The notes beneath the pieces were generated by a model, which searched no databases, was not told the origin of the DNA, and was given only the letters and a program-made list of their open reading frames with translations. Source: Chloroflexota bacterium (lineage in GTDB: Bacteria; Chloroflexota; Dehalococcoidia; Lucifugimonadales; UBA1127). Taken from it: a stretch of DNA of 64,000 nucleotides. Below are positions 17,286-34,575 of the stretch, piece by piece. A program made the position numbers and the translations under genes. The stretch covers positions 10,682 through 74,681 of the forward strand of contig JAPONS010000008.1 of NCBI GenBank assembly GCA_026713825.1, given 5' to 3'. Within the stretch, counting starts at the first letter, position 1, and each line of letters opens with the position of its first letter.

Positions 17286-17294
17286 TGCTATACT
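17286..17294 (+). promoter_or_regulatory. Extended -10 promoter TGCTATACT for argF (near-leaderless)
   Basis: TGCTATACT ends 9 nt before ATG 17304. No SD in between. Confidence 0.45.
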
Positions 17295-23468: not shown

Positions 23469-23477
23469 ATTGTAACA
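23469..23477 (-). promoter_or_regulatory. Extended -10 promoter TGTTACAAT upstream of dnaJ
   Basis: Minus strand TGTTACAAT lies about 57 nt upstream of ATG 23412. Confidence 0.4.
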
Positions 23478-25730: not shown

Positions 25731-26855
25731 CTAGCCCACCACGGTCGCGCAGATGACGTAGACCTCCAGCGTCCAACTGCCGCTCTGCTCCGACGTCTCT
25801 GCCGCGCTCGCCGTCCAGCCCAGCGGCTTGTCGCCGGGCACGCCCGTCCGCGCCGACGCCGGCAGGCTCACGCCTGCGCTTGCGCCCGTGATGCTCGCGC
25901 CGCCCGCGACCGCGAACAGGTCGCTGCCCGCGTCCGCGCACATCGCCGAGGCGGACTTGTCGTCGCTCGTGGAATCCGAGCTGACCTTCACAAGGGTCAG
26001 GTTGCTGATGCCGGGTTCACCCTGGACGCCCTGCGGGCCGTGCGGGCCCCCAGCGCCCGTGAGGCCGGGAGCGCCGCGTTCGCCGGCCTCACCCTGCGGG
26101 CCGCGCTCGCCCTGCGGGCCCTGCGGGCCAATCGCTCCGGGCGGGCCCATGACGCCCTCGTCACCCTTGATGCCCTGCGGGCCGGTCGGGCCTTGCGTCC
26201 CGGTCTCGCCCTGCGGCCCCTGCGGGCCAACCTCGCCCTGCGGGCCGCGCTGCCCGGGCGGGCCCTGCTCGCCCTGCTCGCCCTGGATCCCCTGGGGGCC
26301 CTGGATCCCCTGCGCGCCGACCAGACCCTGCGGACCCGGAGCACCAATCAGGCCCTGCGGGCCGGTCGGGCCTTGCGGTCCTATCGGGCCTGGCGGACCG
26401 CCGGCCGGGCCTCTCGGACCCTCCGGGCCTGCGGGACCTATCGGGCCCTCGGGACCTATCGGGCCGCGCTCACCCTGGGGACCCTCCGGCCCGGGCGGGC
26501 CGCCCTCCGGGCCGCGCTCACCCACCGGGCCTTGCGGTCCCTCCGCGCCAGTCGCGCCCTGCGGCCCGCGATCGCCCTCCGCCCCCTGCGGACCCTGCGA
26601 CCCCTGCGGGCCTGCCGGACCCCGAAGTCCAGGCGACCCAATCGGCCCCTGGGCTCCGTCCTGCCCCGCCGCTCCCGTCGGACCCTGCGGGCCCGTCGCC
26701 CCTTGCGGGCCCGCGACCCCTTGCGGGCCCGTCGGACCCTGATCGCCCGTGCACGCCGGGAGCAACAGGAGGCCCATCAGGAGGAGAAGTGGGATCCAAA
26801 GACTGCGCCGCCAGACGCTGGAAGACTTCAGGTGCTTCGTATCGACTACCCTCAT
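25731..26855 (-). CDS. Collagen triple-helix-repeat lipoprotein with ~95-aa C-terminal globular domain
   Basis: ORF trimmed to ATG 26855 behind an AAGGAAGG SD. It has a signal plus lipobox (LLLLPAC), then roughly 85 Gly-X-Y triplets ([19 protein letters not shown]...), then a non-repetitive tail ending [14 protein letters not shown]. Confidence 0.85.
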
Positions 26856-26893
26856 GGTGAGCGTACCTTCCTTAAGGAGTTTTTCCGTTTGCA

Positions 26894-26922
26894 AGACTAC
26901 TATAGCCGCCTACCTGTGTCAA
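26894..26922 (-). promoter_or_regulatory. Promoter TTGACA-17-TAGTCT for the collagen-like gene
   Basis: Minus strand: consensus TTGACA (26922-26917), 17-nt spacer, TAGTCT (26899-26894). Confidence 0.5.
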
Positions 26923-27055: not shown

Positions 27056-27895
27056 CTAGCTCGCACGCCGACGCCGCGCCCACACCAGCCCCAGCAGCCC
27101 CAGCCCCGCCAGCAGCACGTACCCGTCCGCCCGCGACCCCTGCCCGCACGTCCCCGGCTCGTCCGGCTCCGGCGTCGGCGTCGCCTCCACCTCCGGTGTC
27201 GCCGTCGGCGTCGCCGTCACGATGATCGGCGGCAACGGCGTCGGCGTCGGCGCCGGCGTCGCCGTCGGCTCCGGCGTCGGCACAGCCGTCGCCGTCGGCA
27301 CTGCCGTCGGCGATGGCGTCGGTGTCTCCGTCGCCACAGCCGTAGCCGTCGGCGATGGCACAGGCGTCGCCGGGACCGCCGTCGGCGTGGCCGTTGCCGC
27401 CGGTGTCGGCGTCGCTGTCGGATCCGGCGCCGGCGGCAGCGCCGGGAACGTCAGGTTGAACCCGTCCACGACGTTCGGTCCCGGAATGAACGTCGCCACC
27501 TCCGCCGCCGTCAGCCCCTCCGGCCCCAGGTGCGCCGTGATCGTGTTCTCCACCGCGATGATGTGGAAGCTGATGTTGCGGAAGTTGAACACCACGTTGG
27601 TGGGCCCGACGATGAGGTTCTGGTACTCGCCGTTCCTGGTGGCCCGCGGCCGCGACTCGTAGCCGTCGATGACGGGGCTGGGGCTCTCTATCCGCGCGAC
27701 GACCATCAGCCCTTGTGGCGCGGCCTCTCCCCCGACCGTCACCGTGCCCGAGTACGTGACCGGGCCCGGCGGCGGCTGTCCTCCTATCTGGGCCTGGACG
27801 TCCCGCCCGCCAGCCAGCGCAAACGCCAGCAGCGCGGCAAAGACGGCAAACGTCAGGATGAGGGCAACCCTGGTGCGGTGTGCTGCAAGTAGCAT
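27056..27895 (-). CDS. Secreted protein: signal peptide, ~125-aa domain, Pro/Thr-rich linker, Cys-containing C-terminal TM + Arg-rich tail
   Basis: ORF trimmed to ATG 27895. Signal MLLAAHRTRVALILTFAVFAALLAFALAGGRDVQAQ, linker ...PTATPTPAATATPTAVPATPVPSPTA..., and C-terminus ...PEPDEPGTCGQGSRADGYVLLAGLGLLGLVWARRRRAS. Confidence 0.75.
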   Translation of the reverse strand: MLLAAHRTRVALILTFAVFAALLAFALAGGRDVQAQIGGQPPPGPVTYSGTVTVGGEAAPQGLMVVARIESPSPVIDGYESRPRATRNGEYQNLIVGPTNVVFNFRNISFHIIAVENTITAHLGPEGLTAAEVATFIPGPNVVDGFNLTFPALPPAPDPTATPTPAATATPTAVPATPVPSPTATAVATETPTPSPTAVPTATAVPTPEPTATPAPTPTPLPPIIVTATPTATPEVEATPTPEPDEPGTCGQGSRADGYVLLAGLGLLGLVWARRRRAS

Positions 27896-28001
27896 GGTCT
27901 TCTCCCGTATCTGAAAGCTCACCAACAGTGAGCCATATTCGTGGCCTTCCCGGGTGGACGCCGCTCAAAACACAACGGCCCGGTCAGCCGACCTGTACAG
28001 G

Positions 28002-28344: not shown

Positions 28345-31300
28345 TTACGGGATGAGCACCCCGTCCGCGGTGGCGTAGAGCCAGTAGCCCTTGCCCACCG
28401 TTACCGGCGCCTTCAGGACGACCCGGTCGTTGTCGTCGAACTTGTTGGGGTCGTTCTCGTCCGCGCCGACGGGGTCGGCCTCAACCACAGGATCTGCAGT
28501 CGAATCGGCCTTCACTGCGTCACCGGTGTCGCGTTCCGTGTATGCGCCCATCTGGCACGGCTCGGTCCCGTCCAGCACCTTCTCCGCGTCAGGCTTCTTG
28601 CCGGTGCATGGGTTGGTGTCATCCACGCCCACGGTCACCGTGTCGCCGGGGGTCACGGAGCTCCAGACCCTGGACAGGGTTTCAAAGGTCAGGGCCTTCA
28701 ACCAGCCCGCGTTGGAGCCGGACCTGAGGGTGCCGAAGTAGTCGTCCGCTGCGACGCCCTCAGGGGCGGGCACGGAAATTGTGATCACGGGCACCAGGTT
28801 CCAGCCTTCCACCACTGTGACGGCGGGCGGCTGAATGTTCGCTGAGGCAGAGGTCGTCAGCGCCGGCCGCAACATCTTCAACGGCTGGAAGTTCTCCGTC
28901 CGTACGAAGTAGGCCGTACTGGCCGTCATCGCGACGATGTCGCCCACAAAGTTCCCCGTCTCCGTGTCCCGGCGGGAGAACAACCACGTCTGGTTGACGT
29001 TGTCAAAGGTCATGACAATGCTCACCGGGTGCGTGGGCGGTATCACGCTGTTGATGGCCGGGTTGGCTGGCTGGAAGGGCAGCGAGATCAGGTTCCAGCC
29101 GGGAGACAAGTCGATCTCCACCGGCTTGGGCTTGACCACGTCCCAGGATGCCTTCAGGTCCGCGGATCCGTCGATCTGTGTGTTCCCCGCCTGGTCCACG
29201 GCCTGCACCGTCAGCGTGTAAGCGCCGATCTTGGGGTTCAGCAGCGGAATGGTGAACTTCACGTTGTCCGGCGTGGTGACGCCCGTGGTCAGGTCTATGG
29301 TGCTGGGCTCCGTGGTGCCGTCCGGAAGCCGGATGCTCAGCTTGGCGGAGGTCAGCGTCACCGTCTTGTAGCTGTCCCGCGCGTACTCATCCCCTTCCAT
29401 CGTAAAGTCCACCGTCACGATGAGAGGGTCAACCTGCTCCACGTTGTCGGCGGTGCCGGACTTGTTTGCCACGTCCTTAACGCTGGCAACGTCGAATTGC
29501 GGAGGCACGCCCTTGTTCAGCTTCTTGTCCAACTCAAAGGTGAAGGAGCCGGGGTCGGCCGCGGAATCACTGTCGCCCGCCGTGCTCTCGACCTCACTGG
29601 TGTCCGCGGCCTTCACGTAGACGCTGAACTCTCCGCCGTCGGAGTTCTCATGCGTGTAGGTGTAGCTCATGGAACCCGTCTGCCTCACCGGACTCCTTGC
29701 AGTCGCGCCCTCGGCTTCGGCTTCGGCGTCGCCATTGGCGGCGGCCTCGGTGACGTACACCGTCGGCGTCGCGTTCAGTTGCTCGTCCGTGGTGATCGTG
29801 ACCGTCACCTTGTCGTTGCTCAGGTCCGCGCTCTTGGACAGGTTGAGGTTCGGCCCCAGCTTGTCAACGGCCCTTGTCCGCACGGCGGTCACGGCGTTGC
29901 CGGCCTTGTCCCGGATCTGGGAACCGGCGATGTCCACCCACGGCCTCTCCGTGGAACCCAGGTTGTCCGCCAGAGTCAAGTAGACTCTGTTGCCGACCGT
30001 CCGCACGGACTCCACCGTGTGGCCGCTGACGCTGAAGGCGGCTTCCGTCACGGTGTCGGCGTCGATGCCGCTGCCGGGGGCGGTGCTGTCGGTCTTGCCC
30101 TCGTCCGCGAAGGTGACCTTGATGGAGTTCTTCTGGGCCTTGTCCGCCTTCGTGGTAGCGTTGTAGCCAATGCCCGTCACCACCGGGTTGCCGCTGGCCA
30201 GCGCCGGATTGACGCTGTCTATGGTGATGAGGTTGGTGCCAAGGATCTCATAGGTGTCCTTGGGCGCAGGTTGGCAGGCGGTAAGCTGGTCGGCTGCGAC
30301 CTCGTCATCTTCACCATTCTCCTTGGTTCGGGTTGCAGTAGTAACCGTGGCGGGGGCGGTAGGAGCAGTGCGCGTATAGTCGTCTCTAGCATCAACCGGG
30401 CACTGATAACCGCCCGTTCCGATTAGAGGGGTGGAATCGGCGGCAGCGGAGTCGCTAGGGACATCCTTCACCGCATCGTCAAAGAGCGGGTCGTACGTCT
30501 CTCCCGCCGTTATTTCGTTCGCGACCACGAAAGTGCCGTTTGACCCCGTAAAGGTTACGGACTGGTTGTTGCTCACAAACGTGTTGGTCCCAACCTTCTT
30601 GCTCACTCTGACGCGGCTGCCCAGGAAGGTGTTATCGCTGAGGTTGCCGCTGAATTTGCTGTCGACTATCGTTCCCGCCGCGCTCCCCACGCCGGCAGTG
30701 CCGGAGACGGAGCCGCTGGTCCGCTGCGAGTTGTTGGCCTCGTCTCGCACCTCGAAGTACCACGGCACGTTGGTGGCGATGGCCTGCAGGGCGGTGGAGT
30801 TGAGGGTCTTGCTGACCCGCCAGCCGTCGTCGATCTTGGTGAAGTCGCCCTCGACGAGGTTCACCACGTTGCCCGCGACCACCAGGCGCACGCCGCCCTC
30901 CCTGGTCAAGCTATTGTTTGCGGGAGGATCGCCGTCCGAGGTCAGGATGCCTGCGTCAGACAGGTTCGCACCGAGCCCGTTGTCGCCCGTGAACTTGGCG
31001 GCGAAGCCGGAGACGCTGTCCGTGATGTCCGCGCTGAAGGTGATGTTGGCGTTCCCCTTGACTATGAGGCCGGGAGCAGGGGAACTGGACACCAGGGACG
31101 GCCTTCCGTTGTCCACCCTCACCGTCTTGACGGAGCCGAAGGTGTTGTCGTCGGGTGTGTAGCTCACCTGGATCCGGTTGCCGTTGAAGGCCTTCACCTG
31201 GTAGGCGTTACCGGTGGTGCATTCGCCCTCGTCATAGGCACTGTCGGTGGTGCCGTCACCCGATTCACCGTTGATGTCGCACCTTGCGTCCACCAAGCCG

Positions 31301-31719
31301 CTGCTCTTGTGAACGGCCTCAATGGTTACAAGAGCGGCAATGGGGATGGTCTTCGGGTTCGCGTCCGGCCCGTCTAGCGCTGTGCCGTCCGCGACAGCAA
31401 CCTTTTGCGTCACCCGCGGCAGGTCCAGGTTCTGGATCGTCACCTCGCCATCGGTTACGGCCGCGATTGTAAACAGGTTGTCGCCAGTGGAATTCTCGTC
31501 GGGGGCGCCGGTAGTAGGTTCTTCAGCGTCCGCCGCATTGTCCCCTGACCGGTCATACAGGGTGCAGCCGGCTAGGCTGTTGGAGCAGACAAACGACTGG
31601 GATGGCTCTCCCGGTCCCGGCGTCTGCGCCTGCACCGTCGGCTGCGTGCTCAGGCCCATGACCACCAGCAGCAGCGCAAACGCTGCCAGGGCCGCCGTCA
31701 TCTTGAAGTATCTGTTCAT
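28345..31719 (-). CDS. 1125-aa secreted surface protein, S-layer-like (Ig-like repeats of the SbsA/Big type)
   Basis: ORF trimmed to ATG 31719 behind an AAGGGAAGGA SD. Signal peptide MNRYFKMTAALAAFALLLVVMGLSTQPTVQAQ. Motifs IRDKAGNAV and AVDQAGNTQ in beta-rich repeats, plus GWNLISLP and GWNLVPV near the C-terminus. No TM anchor. Confidence 0.8.
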   Translation of the reverse strand: MNRYFKMTAALAAFALLLVVMGLSTQPTVQAQTPGPGEPSQSFVCSNSLAGCTLYDRSGDNAADAEEPTTGAPDENSTGDNLFTIAAVTDGEVTIQNLDLPRVTQKVAVADGTALDGPDANPKTIPIAALVTIEAVHKSSGLVDARCDINGESGDGTTDSAYDEGECTTGNAYQVKAFNGNRIQVSYTPDDNTFGSVKTVRVDNGRPSLVSSSPAPGLIVKGNANITFSADITDSVSGFAAKFTGDNGLGANLSDAGILTSDGDPPANNSLTREGGVRLVVAGNVVNLVEGDFTKIDDGWRVSKTLNSTALQAIATNVPWYFEVRDEANNSQRTSGSVSGTAGVGSAAGTIVDSKFSGNLSDNTFLGSRVRVSKKVGTNTFVSNNQSVTFTGSNGTFVVANEITAGETYDPLFDDAVKDVPSDSAAADSTPLIGTGGYQCPVDARDDYTRTAPTAPATVTTATRTKENGEDDEVAADQLTACQPAPKDTYEILGTNLITIDSVNPALASGNPVVTGIGYNATTKADKAQKNSIKVTFADEGKTDSTAPGSGIDADTVTEAAFSVSGHTVESVRTVGNRVYLTLADNLGSTERPWVDIAGSQIRDKAGNAVTAVRTRAVDKLGPNLNLSKSADLSNDKVTVTITTDEQLNATPTVYVTEAAANGDAEAEAEGATARSPVRQTGSMSYTYTHENSDGGEFSVYVKAADTSEVESTAGDSDSAADPGSFTFELDKKLNKGVPPQFDVASVKDVANKSGTADNVEQVDPLIVTVDFTMEGDEYARDSYKTVTLTSAKLSIRLPDGTTEPSTIDLTTGVTTPDNVKFTIPLLNPKIGAYTLTVQAVDQAGNTQIDGSADLKASWDVVKPKPVEIDLSPGWNLISLPFQPANPAINSVIPPTHPVSIVMTFDNVNQTWLFSRRDTETGNFVGDIVAMTASTAYFVRTENFQPLKMLRPALTTSASANIQPPAVTVVEGWNLVPVITISVPAPEGVAADDYFGTLRSGSNAGWLKALTFETLSRVWSSVTPGDTVTVGVDDTNPCTGKKPDAEKVLDGTEPCQMGAYTERDTGDAVKADSTADPVVEADPVGADENDPNKFDDNDRVVLKAPVTVGKGYWLYATADGVLIP

Positions 31720-31864
31720 TGTCCTTCCCTTTCGTGGGTGTTTGGGATGTCCCCTCGGCCCCGCCGGGGGAGTGTTCATCTCGGCCTCCCCGCATTCCCT
31801 GCGGGGTCAGCCGTCACGGTCCGGCTCTGGAGCGGGTCCCGCATCGGCTCGCCCAAGTGCGCCT

Positions 31865-31932
31865 CCGTTCGCCCCAAGGCTCTCGTGGGAGCCTGTCCTG
31901 AGGCTCTCGCCTGTCCTGAGGCTCTCGAAGGA
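31865..31932. repeat. Three tandem copies of repeat family R-D (variant CCTGTCCTGAGGCTCTCGAAGG)
   Basis: CCGTTCGCCCCAAGGCTCTCGTGGGA + GCCTGTCCTGAGGCTCTCG + CCTGTCCTGAGGCTCTCGAAGGA. Confidence 0.75.
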
Positions 31933-32060
31933 CGCGGGCGGACGCCAACGCGGGATAGCCACCTCCTTTCGGCGGCTCACCGGCGCCCCGCCCCCCCAGG
32001 GGCAGACGCGATGCAGCGCTCGCCAGTCTGTACTCCGTCACCTGGACCTTCTTTCTTAGC

Positions 32061-32083
32061 CCTGTCCTGAGGCTCTCGAAGGG
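32061..32083. repeat. Repeat R-D variant
   Basis: CCTGTCCTGAGGCTCTCGAAGGG. Confidence 0.75.
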
Positions 32084-32123
32084 CCCATCGGCCATAGCCA
32101 ACAACACGGCACAGCCCAAAGGG

Positions 32124-32146
32124 CCTGTCCTGAGGCTCTCGAAGGG
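32124..32146. repeat. Repeat R-D variant
   Basis: CCTGTCCTGAGGCTCTCGAAGGG, identical to 32061-32083. Confidence 0.75.
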
Positions 32147-32199: not shown

Positions 32200-32427
32200 C
32201 TAGCCCTGGAAGGCGGCAAACCCCCCAATGATGGCGGCGGCAAGGACCACCGCCCCGCCTAACACCGCCAGCGTCAGCCGGTCGATGCGGGCGTTGACGG
32301 CGGCGATAGCCGCCGTGTGGACGCGCTGCTGCTCTATCACCATCTCCAACAACCCCTCCAGCCGCCCAACACGAAGGGCAAGCTCCTGGGCCTGCTCGGT
32401 CTGCGGTGGCTGCTGCTGCGTCGTCAT
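32200..32427 (-). CDS. Small tail-anchored coiled-coil membrane protein, paralog 1 (75 aa)
   Basis: MTTQQQPPQTEQAQELALRVGRLEGLLEMVIEQQRVHTAAIAAVNARIDRLTLAVLGGAVVLAAAIIGGFAAFQG. A GGAGG SD precedes it, and it has its own extended -10 promoter. Confidence 0.65.
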   Translation of the reverse strand: MTTQQQPPQTEQAQELALRVGRLEGLLEMVIEQQRVHTAAIAAVNARIDRLTLAVLGGAVVLAAAIIGGFAAFQG

Positions 32428-32450
32428 CGCCGGTCACGCCTCCGTGGGGA

Positions 32451-32459
32451 AGTATACCA
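32451..32459 (-). promoter_or_regulatory. Extended -10 promoter TGGTATACT (paralog 1)
   Basis: Minus strand GTGGTATACTTCCCCACGGAGGCGTGACCGGCG-ATG. Confidence 0.5.
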
Positions 32460-32491
32460 CAAGCAGGCGGGGGAGCCGGGCGGGAACGGAG

Positions 32492-32740
32492 CTAGCCCTG
32501 GAAGGCCGCAAACCCCCCGATGATGGCGGCGGCAAGGACCACGGCCCCGCCCATCACAGCAAGCGTCATCCGATCAATGCGCTCGCTCAGCCGGTCGATG
32601 CGGGCTTCCAAACGGTCCATGCGATCGCTCAGCCCCCGCTGCTGCTCTATCACCGCCTCCATCAACCCCTCCAGCCGCCCAACACGAAGGGCAAGCTCCT
32701 GGGGCTGCTCAGTCTGCGGCTGGTCCTGCTGCGTCGTCAT
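32492..32740 (-). CDS. Small tail-anchored coiled-coil membrane protein, paralog 2 (82 aa)
   Basis: MTTQQDQPQTEQPQELALRVGRLEGLMEAVIEQQRGLSDRMDRLEARIDRLSERIDRMTLAVMGGAVVLAAAIIGGFAAFQG. The ends are near-identical to paralog 1 and the centre differs by one heptad. Confidence 0.65.
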   Translation of the reverse strand: MTTQQDQPQTEQPQELALRVGRLEGLMEAVIEQQRGLSDRMDRLEARIDRLSERIDRMTLAVMGGAVVLAAAIIGGFAAFQG

Positions 32741-32763
32741 CGCCCCTCACGCCTCCGTGGGGA

Positions 32764-32772
32764 AGTATACCA
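32764..32772 (-). promoter_or_regulatory. Extended -10 promoter TGGTATACT (paralog 2)
   Basis: Minus strand GTGGTATACTTCCCCACGGAGGCGTGAGGGGCG-ATG, the same leader as paralog 1. Confidence 0.5.
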
Positions 32773-32789
32773 CACCCCCCACCCCCAAC

Positions 32790-32816
32790 CCGTTCGCCCT
32801 GAGGGAAATCGAAGGG
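32790..32816. repeat. Repeat R-D (CCGTTCGCCCTGAGGGAAATCGAAGGG)
   Basis: Exact 27-mer shared with 33069 and 33162. Confidence 0.8.
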
Positions 32817-33068
32817 CCCACCCTGACACAACCCCCTTGCGACTACACCCCCAACCCCGCTACCCTCCCCCCATGTCGACTAAAGCCCCAACCACCAACG
32901 CCGCCGCCATCACAACAGGCGCCCCCGAAAACCCCCAACCAGAGGCCAAAATGCAAAAAAAATTGGACTCCAACCTAAAATCCGACACATCCCCTACAAA
33001 ACAAACCAGAAACAACCTCCCCCCCACCTACGGCGTTCCGACGCACAAATACCAAACCAATCCCCCTC

Positions 33069-33097
33069 CCGTTCGCCCTGAGGGAAATCGAAGGGGG
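33069..33097. repeat. Repeat R-D
   Basis: CCGTTCGCCCTGAGGGAAATCGAAGGGGG. Confidence 0.8.
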
Positions 33098-33134
33098 AAC
33101 CGGGGCCCGCAGGCCCGCCGGCGTCGGGGTTGGG

Positions 33135-33190
33135 CCGTTCGCCCTGAGGGAAATCGTTGGGCCGTTCGCCCTGAGGGAAATCGAAGGGGG
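33135..33190. repeat. Two tandem R-D copies (first truncated)
   Basis: CCGTTCGCCCTGAGGGAAATCG-ttggg-CCGTTCGCCCTGAGGGAAATCGAAGGGGG. Confidence 0.8.
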
Positions 33191-34566: not shown

Positions 34567-34575
34567 AGTATACCA
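34567..34575 (-). promoter_or_regulatory. Extended -10 promoter TGGTATACT for the MFS gene
   Basis: Minus strand GGTGGTATACTTGGCGGG... lies 29 nt before GTG 34537. Third occurrence of the same 9-mer. Confidence 0.45.

Follow-up and report, generated by a model that had tools for sequence, protein, structure and literature searches.

A tandem pair of small genes with conserved ends

We analysed a 64,000-nucleotide stretch of a Chloroflexota bacterium of the class Dehalococcoidia (GenBank assembly GCA_026713825.1, contig JAPONS010000008.1, positions 10,682 to 74,681; hereafter the window), and within it two small tandem genes on the minus strand, gene B (32492..32740, 82 aa) and gene A (32200..32427, 75 aa). 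Their products are identical to proteins OXC99_00685 (gene B) and OXC99_00680 (gene A) of an NCBI metagenome-assembled genome, both labelled "hypothetical protein, Chloroflexi bacterium". An earlier annotation made from the letters alone (the original prediction) described two tandem paralogous open reading frames (ORFs) of 75 and 82 aa with near-identical N-termini and C-terminal transmembrane segments, and the alignments agree with it on each point. By BLASTP the two proteins are 72% identical with one 7-residue gap (E=3e-27), differing at five positions in the first 35 residues and at one in the last 24.

The gene B protein consists of a disordered tip (MTTQQDQPQTEQPQ), a conserved head (ELALRVGRLEGLMEAVIEQQR), a centre (GLSDRMDRLEARIDRLSERIDRM) that holds an internal 14-aa repeat (42 nt in DNA), and a C-terminal transmembrane segment (TLAVMGGAVVLAAAIIGGFAAFQG). 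Gene A has the same tip, head and transmembrane segment, and its centre (VHTAAIAAVNARIDRL) is another subtype, shorter by one heptad. At the DNA level, a repeat finder recovered two direct repeats shared by the genes, one of 138 nt (92%) spanning the promoter, the leader and the N-terminal ~35 codons and one of 91 nt (89%) covering the C-terminal ~30 codons; the centres between them are not alignable.

Coding constraint and predicted membrane topology

We estimated the ratio of nonsynonymous to synonymous substitution rates (dN/dS, Nei-Gojobori) over ten pairs and obtained 0.12–0.52, with 0.12–0.43 for gene B against its orthologs. These values show, at the level of sequence comparison, that A and B are real protein-coding genes under purifying selection. 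The invariant start M-T-T-Q-Q is encoded by varying synonymous codons (ACG/ACC, CAG/CAA), so the constraint acts on the protein and not on an RNA or DNA element. Homologs with intact ORFs, whose absence from related genomes would have told against the original prediction, are present in many assemblies.

AlphaFold2 (AF2), run with a 37-sequence alignment, gave a disordered tip at residues 1–12 and one uninterrupted helix at 13–81, with a predicted local distance difference test (pLDDT) score of 83. In both proteins a hydrophobic a/d register with 4-3 spacing runs unbroken from L16 into the transmembrane segment (L16, V20, L23, M/L27, V30, Q34, L/H37, M/I41, L/V44, I48, L51, I/V55 and onward), and the indel keeps this register; the 7-residue length difference is thus heptad-phased, as had been proposed. 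The core carries I/M at a and L/V at d, and the same face of the transmembrane segment carries G/A. Such a continuous heptad a/d pattern within one long helix is that of a coiled coil.

The hydrophobic stretch at the C-terminus is uncharged and extends to the final residue in both proteins, and the flanking lysines and arginines (K+R) number four on its N-side against none on its C-side in the 82-aa protein and two against none in the 75-aa protein. The same layout recurs among 192 family and superfamily proteins: 187 have at least one C-terminal transmembrane segment and 182 have exactly one; the tail after it is no longer than 5 residues in 167 of the 187; mean K+R is 3.0 in the N-flank against 0.73 in the C-flank (N>C in 179); and the N-terminus is hydrophobic in just 7 of 192. 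A terminal transmembrane segment, a minimal tail and no N-terminal signal sequence place A and B in the C-tail-anchored class. With arginines on the N-side of the segment, an empty C-side and no signal peptide, the coiled coil is predicted to lie in the cytoplasm (N-in). The small tail-anchored coiled-coil proteins of the original prediction therefore reappear in the model, with its single helix, its one extreme C-terminal transmembrane segment and its positive charge on the N-side.

A locally expanded multigene family with variable repeat number

On sequence similarity, genes A and B belong to an unannotated, locally expanded family, here called MTTQQ, which we found only in a few Chloroflexi/Dehalococcoidia metagenome assemblies (16–29 close members). 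What had been described as a pair is thus part of a multigene family with at least 11 paralogs in one assembly, ranging in length from 65 to 185 aa. One locus (L001) has four paralogs in a row (88, 77, 65 and 96 aa); another (L004) has three before and four after the gene for a large secreted protein, with at least four more on L008, a second contig of the same sample.

Members share the start MTTQQ, a tip that is rich in Q/P/E/T and varies in length, and the head (D/E)LALRVGRLEGLxExVIEQQR. The head is followed by a variable number of (T/V)NAR(I/F)DA (7 aa) or LRSEVNARIDA (11 aa) repeats, then DRL and the transmembrane segment. Across 27 members the distance from head to transmembrane segment takes the values 18, 22, 25, 29, 32, 33, 36, 40, 43, 44 and upward, with steps of 3, 4, 7 and 11; the sequences are related, so that this series is supportive and is not a formal test. 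These steps amount to one helical turn, a heptad or a hendecad.

Some paralogs depart from this plan. The 65-aa member of L001 (8311-8508) ends before the transmembrane segment, and L007 8001-8390 and P0013 are likewise listed among paralogs without an intact anchor. Two such paralogs have frameshifted C-termini, which are probably sequencing errors, because the same assembly splits the large gene. A second MTTQQ array, of 138–185 aa, lies beside fn3-rich secreted proteins (L008 9865-10404, plus strand; L008 8001-9754; L009 1363-3134) and comes from the same samples as L004/L007. One ~180-aa paralog in it is uncalled, and an overlapping minus-strand histidine-kinase/response-regulator call covers the stretch. 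Other small genes accompany the arrays (L004 7399-7946; L007 2605-3127; L001 13162-13344), encoding 114–118-aa proteins that start with MTPYRWRDP and have two hydrophobic segments, and 50–60-aa proteins that contain EGRKEG/EEGR repeats and whose ..ISEEQR.QIE.. tail is conserved.

Each paralog carries its own promoter-like element and leader

The original prediction placed the same cassette before each gene, and we found it as exact 27-nt copies (GTGGTATACTTCCCCACGGAGGCGTGA) that occur exactly twice in the 64-kb window, at 32434-32460 and 32747-32773 on the minus strand. The identity reaches one base further 5' (TGTGGTATACT) and, after two differing bases, resumes as GGCGATG. Read on the gene strand, the order is TGTGGTATACT (TGn plus TATACT), a C-run, GGAGG, 11 nt and ATG. 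In gene B, the extended -10 promoter-like element TGTGGTATACT lies at 32764..32774 (minus strand; promoter function inferred) and the GGAGG Shine-Dalgarno sequence, read from the letters, at 32752..32756 (minus strand), 11 nt 5' of the ATG; the predicted 5' untranslated region is ~18 nt, given the inferred transcription start. The corresponding elements of gene A lie at 32451..32461 (promoter-like TGTGGTATACT, minus strand), starting 30 nt past the gene B stop, and at 32439..32443 (GGAGG, minus strand).

The pattern TGTGNTAYAMT has two matches in the window, both at genes A and B, against 0.07 expected by chance. In other assemblies, all 20 of the 20 family genes examined (8 loci) have TGTG(C/G)TA(T/C)A(C/A)T, a C-run and (A)GGAGG upstream, with TGTGnTAnAnT sitting 24–40 nt before the gene, so that a promoter-leader of its own is a property of each member. 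One of the small genes accompanying the arrays also has TGTGnTAnAnT upstream (L007 2571). No conserved -35 was found upstream of genes A and B, and a sigma-70 -35/-10 consensus scan gave no matches, consistent with an extended -10 that has no -35. A terminator scan performed no better than shuffles. Because the -10 of gene A lies so close behind the gene B stop and no terminator-like hairpin stands between them, read-through from B into A is likely.

A shorter pattern, TGNTAYAMT, occurs in the window at 34567-34575 (minus), 23469-23477 (minus) and 17286-17294 (plus). It stands ~30 nt upstream of the start of a major facilitator superfamily (MFS) gene and ~9 nt upstream of the dnaJ ORF start; the element thus looks like the organism's ordinary promoter type, with short leaders, and not like a special regulatory site. 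This suggests that short-leader or leaderless transcripts are common in the organism. As an RNA motif the cassette was rejected in favour of promoter plus Shine-Dalgarno sequence: Rfam applied to the whole window returned a tRNA only, leaving the cassette unmatched, and folding found no significant structure in the leaders or the downstream intergenic region (z-scores -1.6 to +0.7).

Homogenised ends around exchanged centres

The divergence between genes A and B is strongly partitioned. We computed the proportions of differing synonymous (pS) and nonsynonymous (pN) sites, which are 0.125 and 0.086 in the first 35 codons and 0.31 and 0.06 in the last 30, and in the centre both reach saturation (0.68 and 0.66). 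Each centre has counterparts of its own subtype in other genomes: that of gene B resembles L001:8001, P0011 and L002 (..LS.RMDRLE.R..), and that of gene A resembles L004:13281 and P0010 (VHTEALAATNARID..). The 36 nt upstream are 0.89–0.97 identical between paralogs within a genome (window, L001, L006, L008) against 0.43 between genomes, and the Q/P-rich tip is genome-specific.

Saturated centres, near-identical ends and centres that match subtypes from other genomes together make the pair a mosaic. Point-mutational divergence of the centre was ruled out by the joint saturation of pS and pN beside near-identical ends. Read most simply, the centres are old subtypes that have persisted, and the flanks were homogenised by gene conversion or copied recently. 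The original prediction had taken the diverged, heptad-phased centre to suggest selection on coiled-coil length or partner specificity, and selection on length as the cause of the divergence is not borne out by the mosaic pattern. More broadly, we take the family to evolve by birth and death and through NARID-type repeats, of 7 and 11 residues, that are gained and lost, with gene conversion homogenising promoter, leader, N-terminus and transmembrane segment within a genome while old centre subtypes are retained.

A wider, unannotated superfamily

We searched a profile of 37 sequences against 1.84 billion representatives. This returned 4373 cluster representatives at E≤1e-3, of which 143 passed E≤1e-10, with E-values down to 1e-21; the best 150 listed matches are almost all 70–200 aa long and align through to the C-terminal end. 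By these matches the MTTQQ family falls inside a large unannotated superfamily of ~4400 clusters at 50% identity. The sequences inspected show the order M-T-rich start, (E)R(I/V)xRLEG, NAR(I/F)D-type heptads, IDRL and transmembrane segment, that is, the same elements and motifs in the same order as in MTTQQ proteins ("RLEG-(NARID)n-IDRL-TM"). Three features set the Chloroflexi clade apart within this superfamily: the MTTQQ start, the Q/P-rich tip and the 20-residue LALRVGRLEGLxExVIEQQR head.

Family libraries gave no dominant assignment. Among 100 superfamily members scanned with Pfam, matches fell to DUF7310 (41), HSBP1 (28), DUF1664 (20), XhlA (16) and CCDC90-like (6), and NCBIfam was similarly unspecific, with no dominant coiled-coil family. 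CCDC90/MCUR1-like proteins (DUF1640, PF07798), DUF7310 and DUF1664 share with A and B a coiled coil followed by a C-terminal transmembrane segment, and the superfamily matches to them are weak; the window proteins have no DUF1640-type head domain and no PF07798 match, and their DUF7310 score is 16.2 bits against a threshold of 40. Scans of A, B and paralogs against Pfam, NCBIfam, PHROGs and PADLOC yielded sub-threshold coiled-coil noise only. A precomputed Pfam tag, PF27276, appears on some Actinomycetota relatives (P0030/P0032). Names for the superfamily clusters are almost absent, and a cluster-member look-up gave none that was useful. Relatives were found neither in two scans of viral contigs nor in JGI metagenome contigs, and the GTDB representative genomes gave a single locus, of lineage Dehalococcoidia. 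A literature search on ssr2422 and on tail-anchored coiled-coil bacterial families returned nothing specific.

A large secreted protein and a repeat-rich intergenic region adjoin the pair

Along the minus strand the gene order is atpA-G-D-(C), Rex (on the opposite strand), the MFS gene, short repeats, B, A, further short repeats and a gene for a large secreted protein of 1124 aa; beyond this lie genes for a 289-aa and a 387-aa protein and then hrcA-grpE-dnaJ. The large protein is encoded at 28345..31719 (minus strand), with its start taken at MNRYFKMTAALAAF (length 1124/1144 aa). It has ~48 homologs, all of 830–1200 aa and 36–72% identity, and no Pfam domain. A signal peptide and two C-terminal GWNL(I/V)(S/P)LP domains are conserved in this fast-evolving protein. 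AF2 models it as an all-beta chain of immunoglobulin (Ig)-like beta-sandwich domains (pLDDT 79). Foldseek returned generic multi-Ig and S-layer proteins (N. maritimus 8c8m, SbsB, SbsC, H. volcanii 7ptp) at TM-scores of ~0.1, and a sequence search of the PDB found nothing. Cultivated Dehalococcoidia are known to have S-layers (PMC10284905), and the large protein is a reasonable but unproven S-layer candidate; the fold matches are generic and their scores low, so we keep "S-layer" as a candidate label.

The large gene shares its synteny with two more genes of envelope type. The 289-aa protein (27056-27925, minus strand) has a signal peptide, a proline/threonine (P/T)-rich linker and a C-terminal transmembrane segment followed by RRRR; the 387-aa protein (25731-26894, minus strand) combines collagen triple-helix repeats (PF01391, 4.6e-37) with a lipobox-like signal. 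As an anchor or spacer for the large protein, either of them is more plausible than A and B. MTTQQ genes flank the large gene in three outer contexts (ATP synthase/MFS, glycosyltransferase/superoxide dismutase and Hom/ThrC); a fourth context has them beside fn3-rich secreted proteins.

The intergenic region around the pair is rich in short repeats. Four copies of GTTCGCCCTGAGGGAAATCGAAGG (32792..33187, plus strand) lie between the MFS gene and gene B and none elsewhere in the window; four copies of CCTGTCCTGAGGCTCTCGAAGG (31892..32145, plus strand) separate gene A from the large gene and lie in part inside the conserved leader of the latter. The two repeat families share the core CCTGAG-N5/6-TCGAAGG, of which there are six in the 64 kb, all flanking the gene pair and in one orientation. 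Similar elements (e.g. TTCGCCCTGAGCCCGTCGAAGGGCG) stand between paralogs in other assemblies.

A stretch of ~200–240 nt upstream of the large gene (31720-31985, minus strand) is conserved in DNA across assemblies (also L002, L003, L010 and L013-L015; blocks GCCGAAAGGAGGTGGC.., GGGCGAGCCGATGCGGGACCCGCTCCAGAGCCGGACCGTGAGGGC and AAACACCCATGAAAGGGAAGGACAATG), including those without MTTQQ genes. RNAalifold placed 31 pairs in this region, five of them with compensatory changes, with a covariation term of only +0.2; the region is a candidate long 5' leader or regulatory RNA. In several assemblies the variable intergenic region also holds stand-alone GIY-YIG genes of 94–104 aa, bounded on one side by the MFS or ThrC gene and on the other by the small genes or the large gene (L003 485-772; L005 7474-7758; L007 1878-2165; L014 4774-5088; L015 4755-5045); the window has none.

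Interpretation and alternative explanations

In our reading, genes A and B probably encode separately promoted, N-in tail-anchored coiled-coil tethers of an accessory MTTQQ family. This describes the proteins and not their role in the cell, and in any specific cellular role we place far less confidence. The proteins would insert into the membrane post-translationally, keeping the coiled coil in the cytoplasm. Parallel oligomers, homo- or heteromeric, would form by contacts along the coiled coil and along the small-residue face of the transmembrane segment. The conserved head would be the functional end, and the number of repeats would fix how far it stands off the membrane's inner face; with 18–141 helical residues at ~0.15 nm each, the reach across the family would be ~4–20 nm. 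The role would then lie at the inner face of the membrane, possibly tied to the export or organisation of large surface proteins, with whose genes the family has a loose genomic association.

Several observations weigh against this reading. The topology and oligomeric state of A and B are predictions, and a few superfamily members have signal peptides, so that an extracytoplasmic coiled coil may be possible for some relatives. No Pfam, NCBIfam, PHROG or PADLOC family reaches threshold for A or B, which leaves the functional reading without support from homology. Three loci (L013-L015) have the same ATP synthase-Rex-MFS-large gene synteny with neither an MTTQQ gene nor the promoter motif, and a distant superfamily relative sits in an unrelated context. 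Co-location with the large gene could also reflect a long, repeat-rich intergenic region that tolerates insertions. Since orthologous large-gene loci exist without MTTQQ genes, we call the family accessory; A and B as obligate partners of the large protein are ruled out by L013-L015. Several multi-megabase contigs that carry the large gene likewise show no family member among the matches listed.

A more specific version of the tether reading, which we hold to be a speculative and improbable extension, is that the proteins act as length-graded coiled-coil "rulers" working with an S-layer-like envelope module. They might do so as cytoplasmic-face scaffolds that mark the site of export and assembly of the giant surface protein or, were the topology prediction wrong, as N-out stalks that set the distance from membrane to S-layer. 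If the ruler version were true, repeat gain and loss together with gene conversion would tune envelope geometry, and SlaB- or Lpp-type spacing would have in this family a bacterial equivalent made up of interchangeable stalks.

The N-out arrangement can also be taken as an explanation in its own right, in which A and B anchor or space an S-layer-like protein in the manner of archaeal SlaB or the Lpp envelope ruler. Like A and B, SlaB combines a coiled coil with a C-terminal transmembrane segment and is encoded beside a large surface-layer-like protein. MTTQQ genes adjoin a secreted multi-Ig protein in three independent outer contexts, this protein has no membrane anchor of its own, a coiled coil of variable length would suit a spacer, S-layers are present in Dehalococcoidia (PMC10284905), and some few superfamily members do have signal peptides. 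We nevertheless consider the stalk arrangement unlikely for A and B, which have no signal peptide and for which the positive-inside rule strongly favours N-in. N-terminal export of a highly charged helix of 50–160 residues is itself unlikely, and we count this against the stalks. SlaB has a signal peptide for its export and is an obligate partner, whereas the association of A and B with the large gene is facultative and their predicted orientation is N-in, so the features that would make them SlaB-like are missing. Large genes orthologous to the neighbour, with conserved C-terminal domains, occur without MTTQQ genes, and better anchor candidates exist in synteny in the signal-peptide, P/T-rich, C-terminal-transmembrane protein and the collagen-repeat lipoprotein.

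The original prediction saw in the pair an architecture recalling XhlA-type phage or lysis-associated membrane proteins; on this view A and B could be XhlA-type holin partners or membrane-permeabilising lysis factors from a degraded prophage or a domesticated system. SPP1 gp24.1, an XhlA homolog with a C-terminal transmembrane segment, acts with a two-transmembrane holin and an endolysin (PMC6316719; also PMC5589764). The architectural half of the comparison stands: A and B share with XhlA and gp24.1 an N-terminal coiled coil, a single C-terminal transmembrane segment, a size of ~80–90 aa and no signal peptide (PMC6316719). The 82-aa protein scores 10.5 bits (E=0.75) against PF10779, whose gathering score is 34.7, and longer paralogs reach 18.7–23 bits; phrog_937 ("hemolysin") is also sub-threshold, at E=0.005 for a window protein and 4e-5. 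XhlA accounts for 16 matches at E≤1e-3 among the 100 superfamily members scanned, the best at 1.8e-10. We built a profile of bona fide XhlA from gp24.1 and four Bacillus phage proteins annotated XhlA/XpaF1 (5 sequences), and hhalign related the MTTQQ family to it with a probability of 56% (E=1.1e-4, 58 columns, one 7-residue gap).

Membership, the other half of the comparison, is not established. The gathering score is missed, the 75-aa protein has no PF10779 match, and the hhalign probability against gp24.1 alone is 2.3%. The motif L-x-K-I-x-x-N-T-x-W-I-x-R before the transmembrane segment is invariant in the bona fide XhlA alignment; the MTTQQ family lacks it and has RIDR(L/M)TLAV in its place, and the 7-residue hhalign gap falls exactly at the invariant NTxWIxR. 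Phage XhlA genes directly adjoin the endolysin, with an annotated holin adjacent as well in 2 of 4 loci. In the neighbourhood of A and B there is no holin, endolysin or other phage gene, as the original prediction had itself observed; the neighbours are MFS, Rex, ATP synthase, secreted proteins, HrcA, GrpE and DnaJ, and no relatives appeared in the viral-contig scans. Arrays of up to 11 independently promoted paralogs per assembly with variable repeat number are unlike a lysis gene and unlike XhlA or gp24.1. The XhlA proteins thus share an architecture with A and B and are possibly very distant kin, without a demonstrable membership or a lysis cassette, and we think a lysis function improbable.

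Another candidate role is that of the stress or stationary-phase tail-anchored proteins ElaB, YqjD and YgaM of E. coli, which serve as ribosome tethers or in membrane protection. These DUF883 proteins are of the same class as A and B, being small inner-membrane proteins that are C-tail-anchored, have a helical domain in the cytoplasm and occur as several paralogs in a genome (PMC6389858, PMC10746276). The heat-shock genes hrcA-grpE-dnaJ lie nearby, but proximity to hrcA is common to loci without the small genes, the promoter resembles an ordinary extended -10 that also precedes the MFS gene, and no DUF883 match appeared among the Pfam results even at E≤10. Repeat-number variation, a feature of the MTTQQ proteins, is not known for DUF883. 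We accordingly give an ElaB-like role little credence.

Still less probable, to the point of being very doubtful, is that the genes encode small membrane toxins, exclusion factors or defence factors in a variable, repeat-rich hotspot. Their patchy distribution between related genomes, their multiple copies, the short repeats that flank them, the small GIY-YIG genes of other genomes and an adjoining surface protein likely to be exposed to phages all fit such a setting; yet PADLOC gave no match, neither an antitoxin-like partner nor an antisense feature was seen, type I toxins are shorter and less hydrophilic than these proteins, and the long soluble head is under purifying selection. That A and B are spurious ORFs, for which the GC-rich repeat DNA and its many overlapping mechanical ORFs might speak, is effectively refuted by dN/dS well below 1, synonymous variation at invariant residues, conserved start, Shine-Dalgarno sequence and promoter, and intact homologs in many assemblies.

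Significance

The tail-anchored coiled-coil architecture is already known; the MTTQQ family that bears it is unannotated and limited to a few assemblies. Its combination of features is unusual: paralogs stand in arrays and are individually promoted, repeat number varies without loss of register, the ends are homogenised and the centres between them exchanged, and a putative S-layer locus is often adjacent. Small tail-anchored proteins are systematically missed or left "hypothetical", and the MTTQQ family supplies rules by which its members can be recognised: an invariant start, a conserved head, a coil of 7- and 11-residue repeats and an anchor that continues the register into the membrane. 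If the length series is not functional, the family still shows cleanly how a promoter and the two gene ends evolve in concert while the centres between them are swapped. If the length series is functional, the family would serve as a natural experiment on the setting of distances at the bacterial membrane, and envelope assembly in uncultivated Dehalococcoidia could be approached through the link to a putative S-layer locus.

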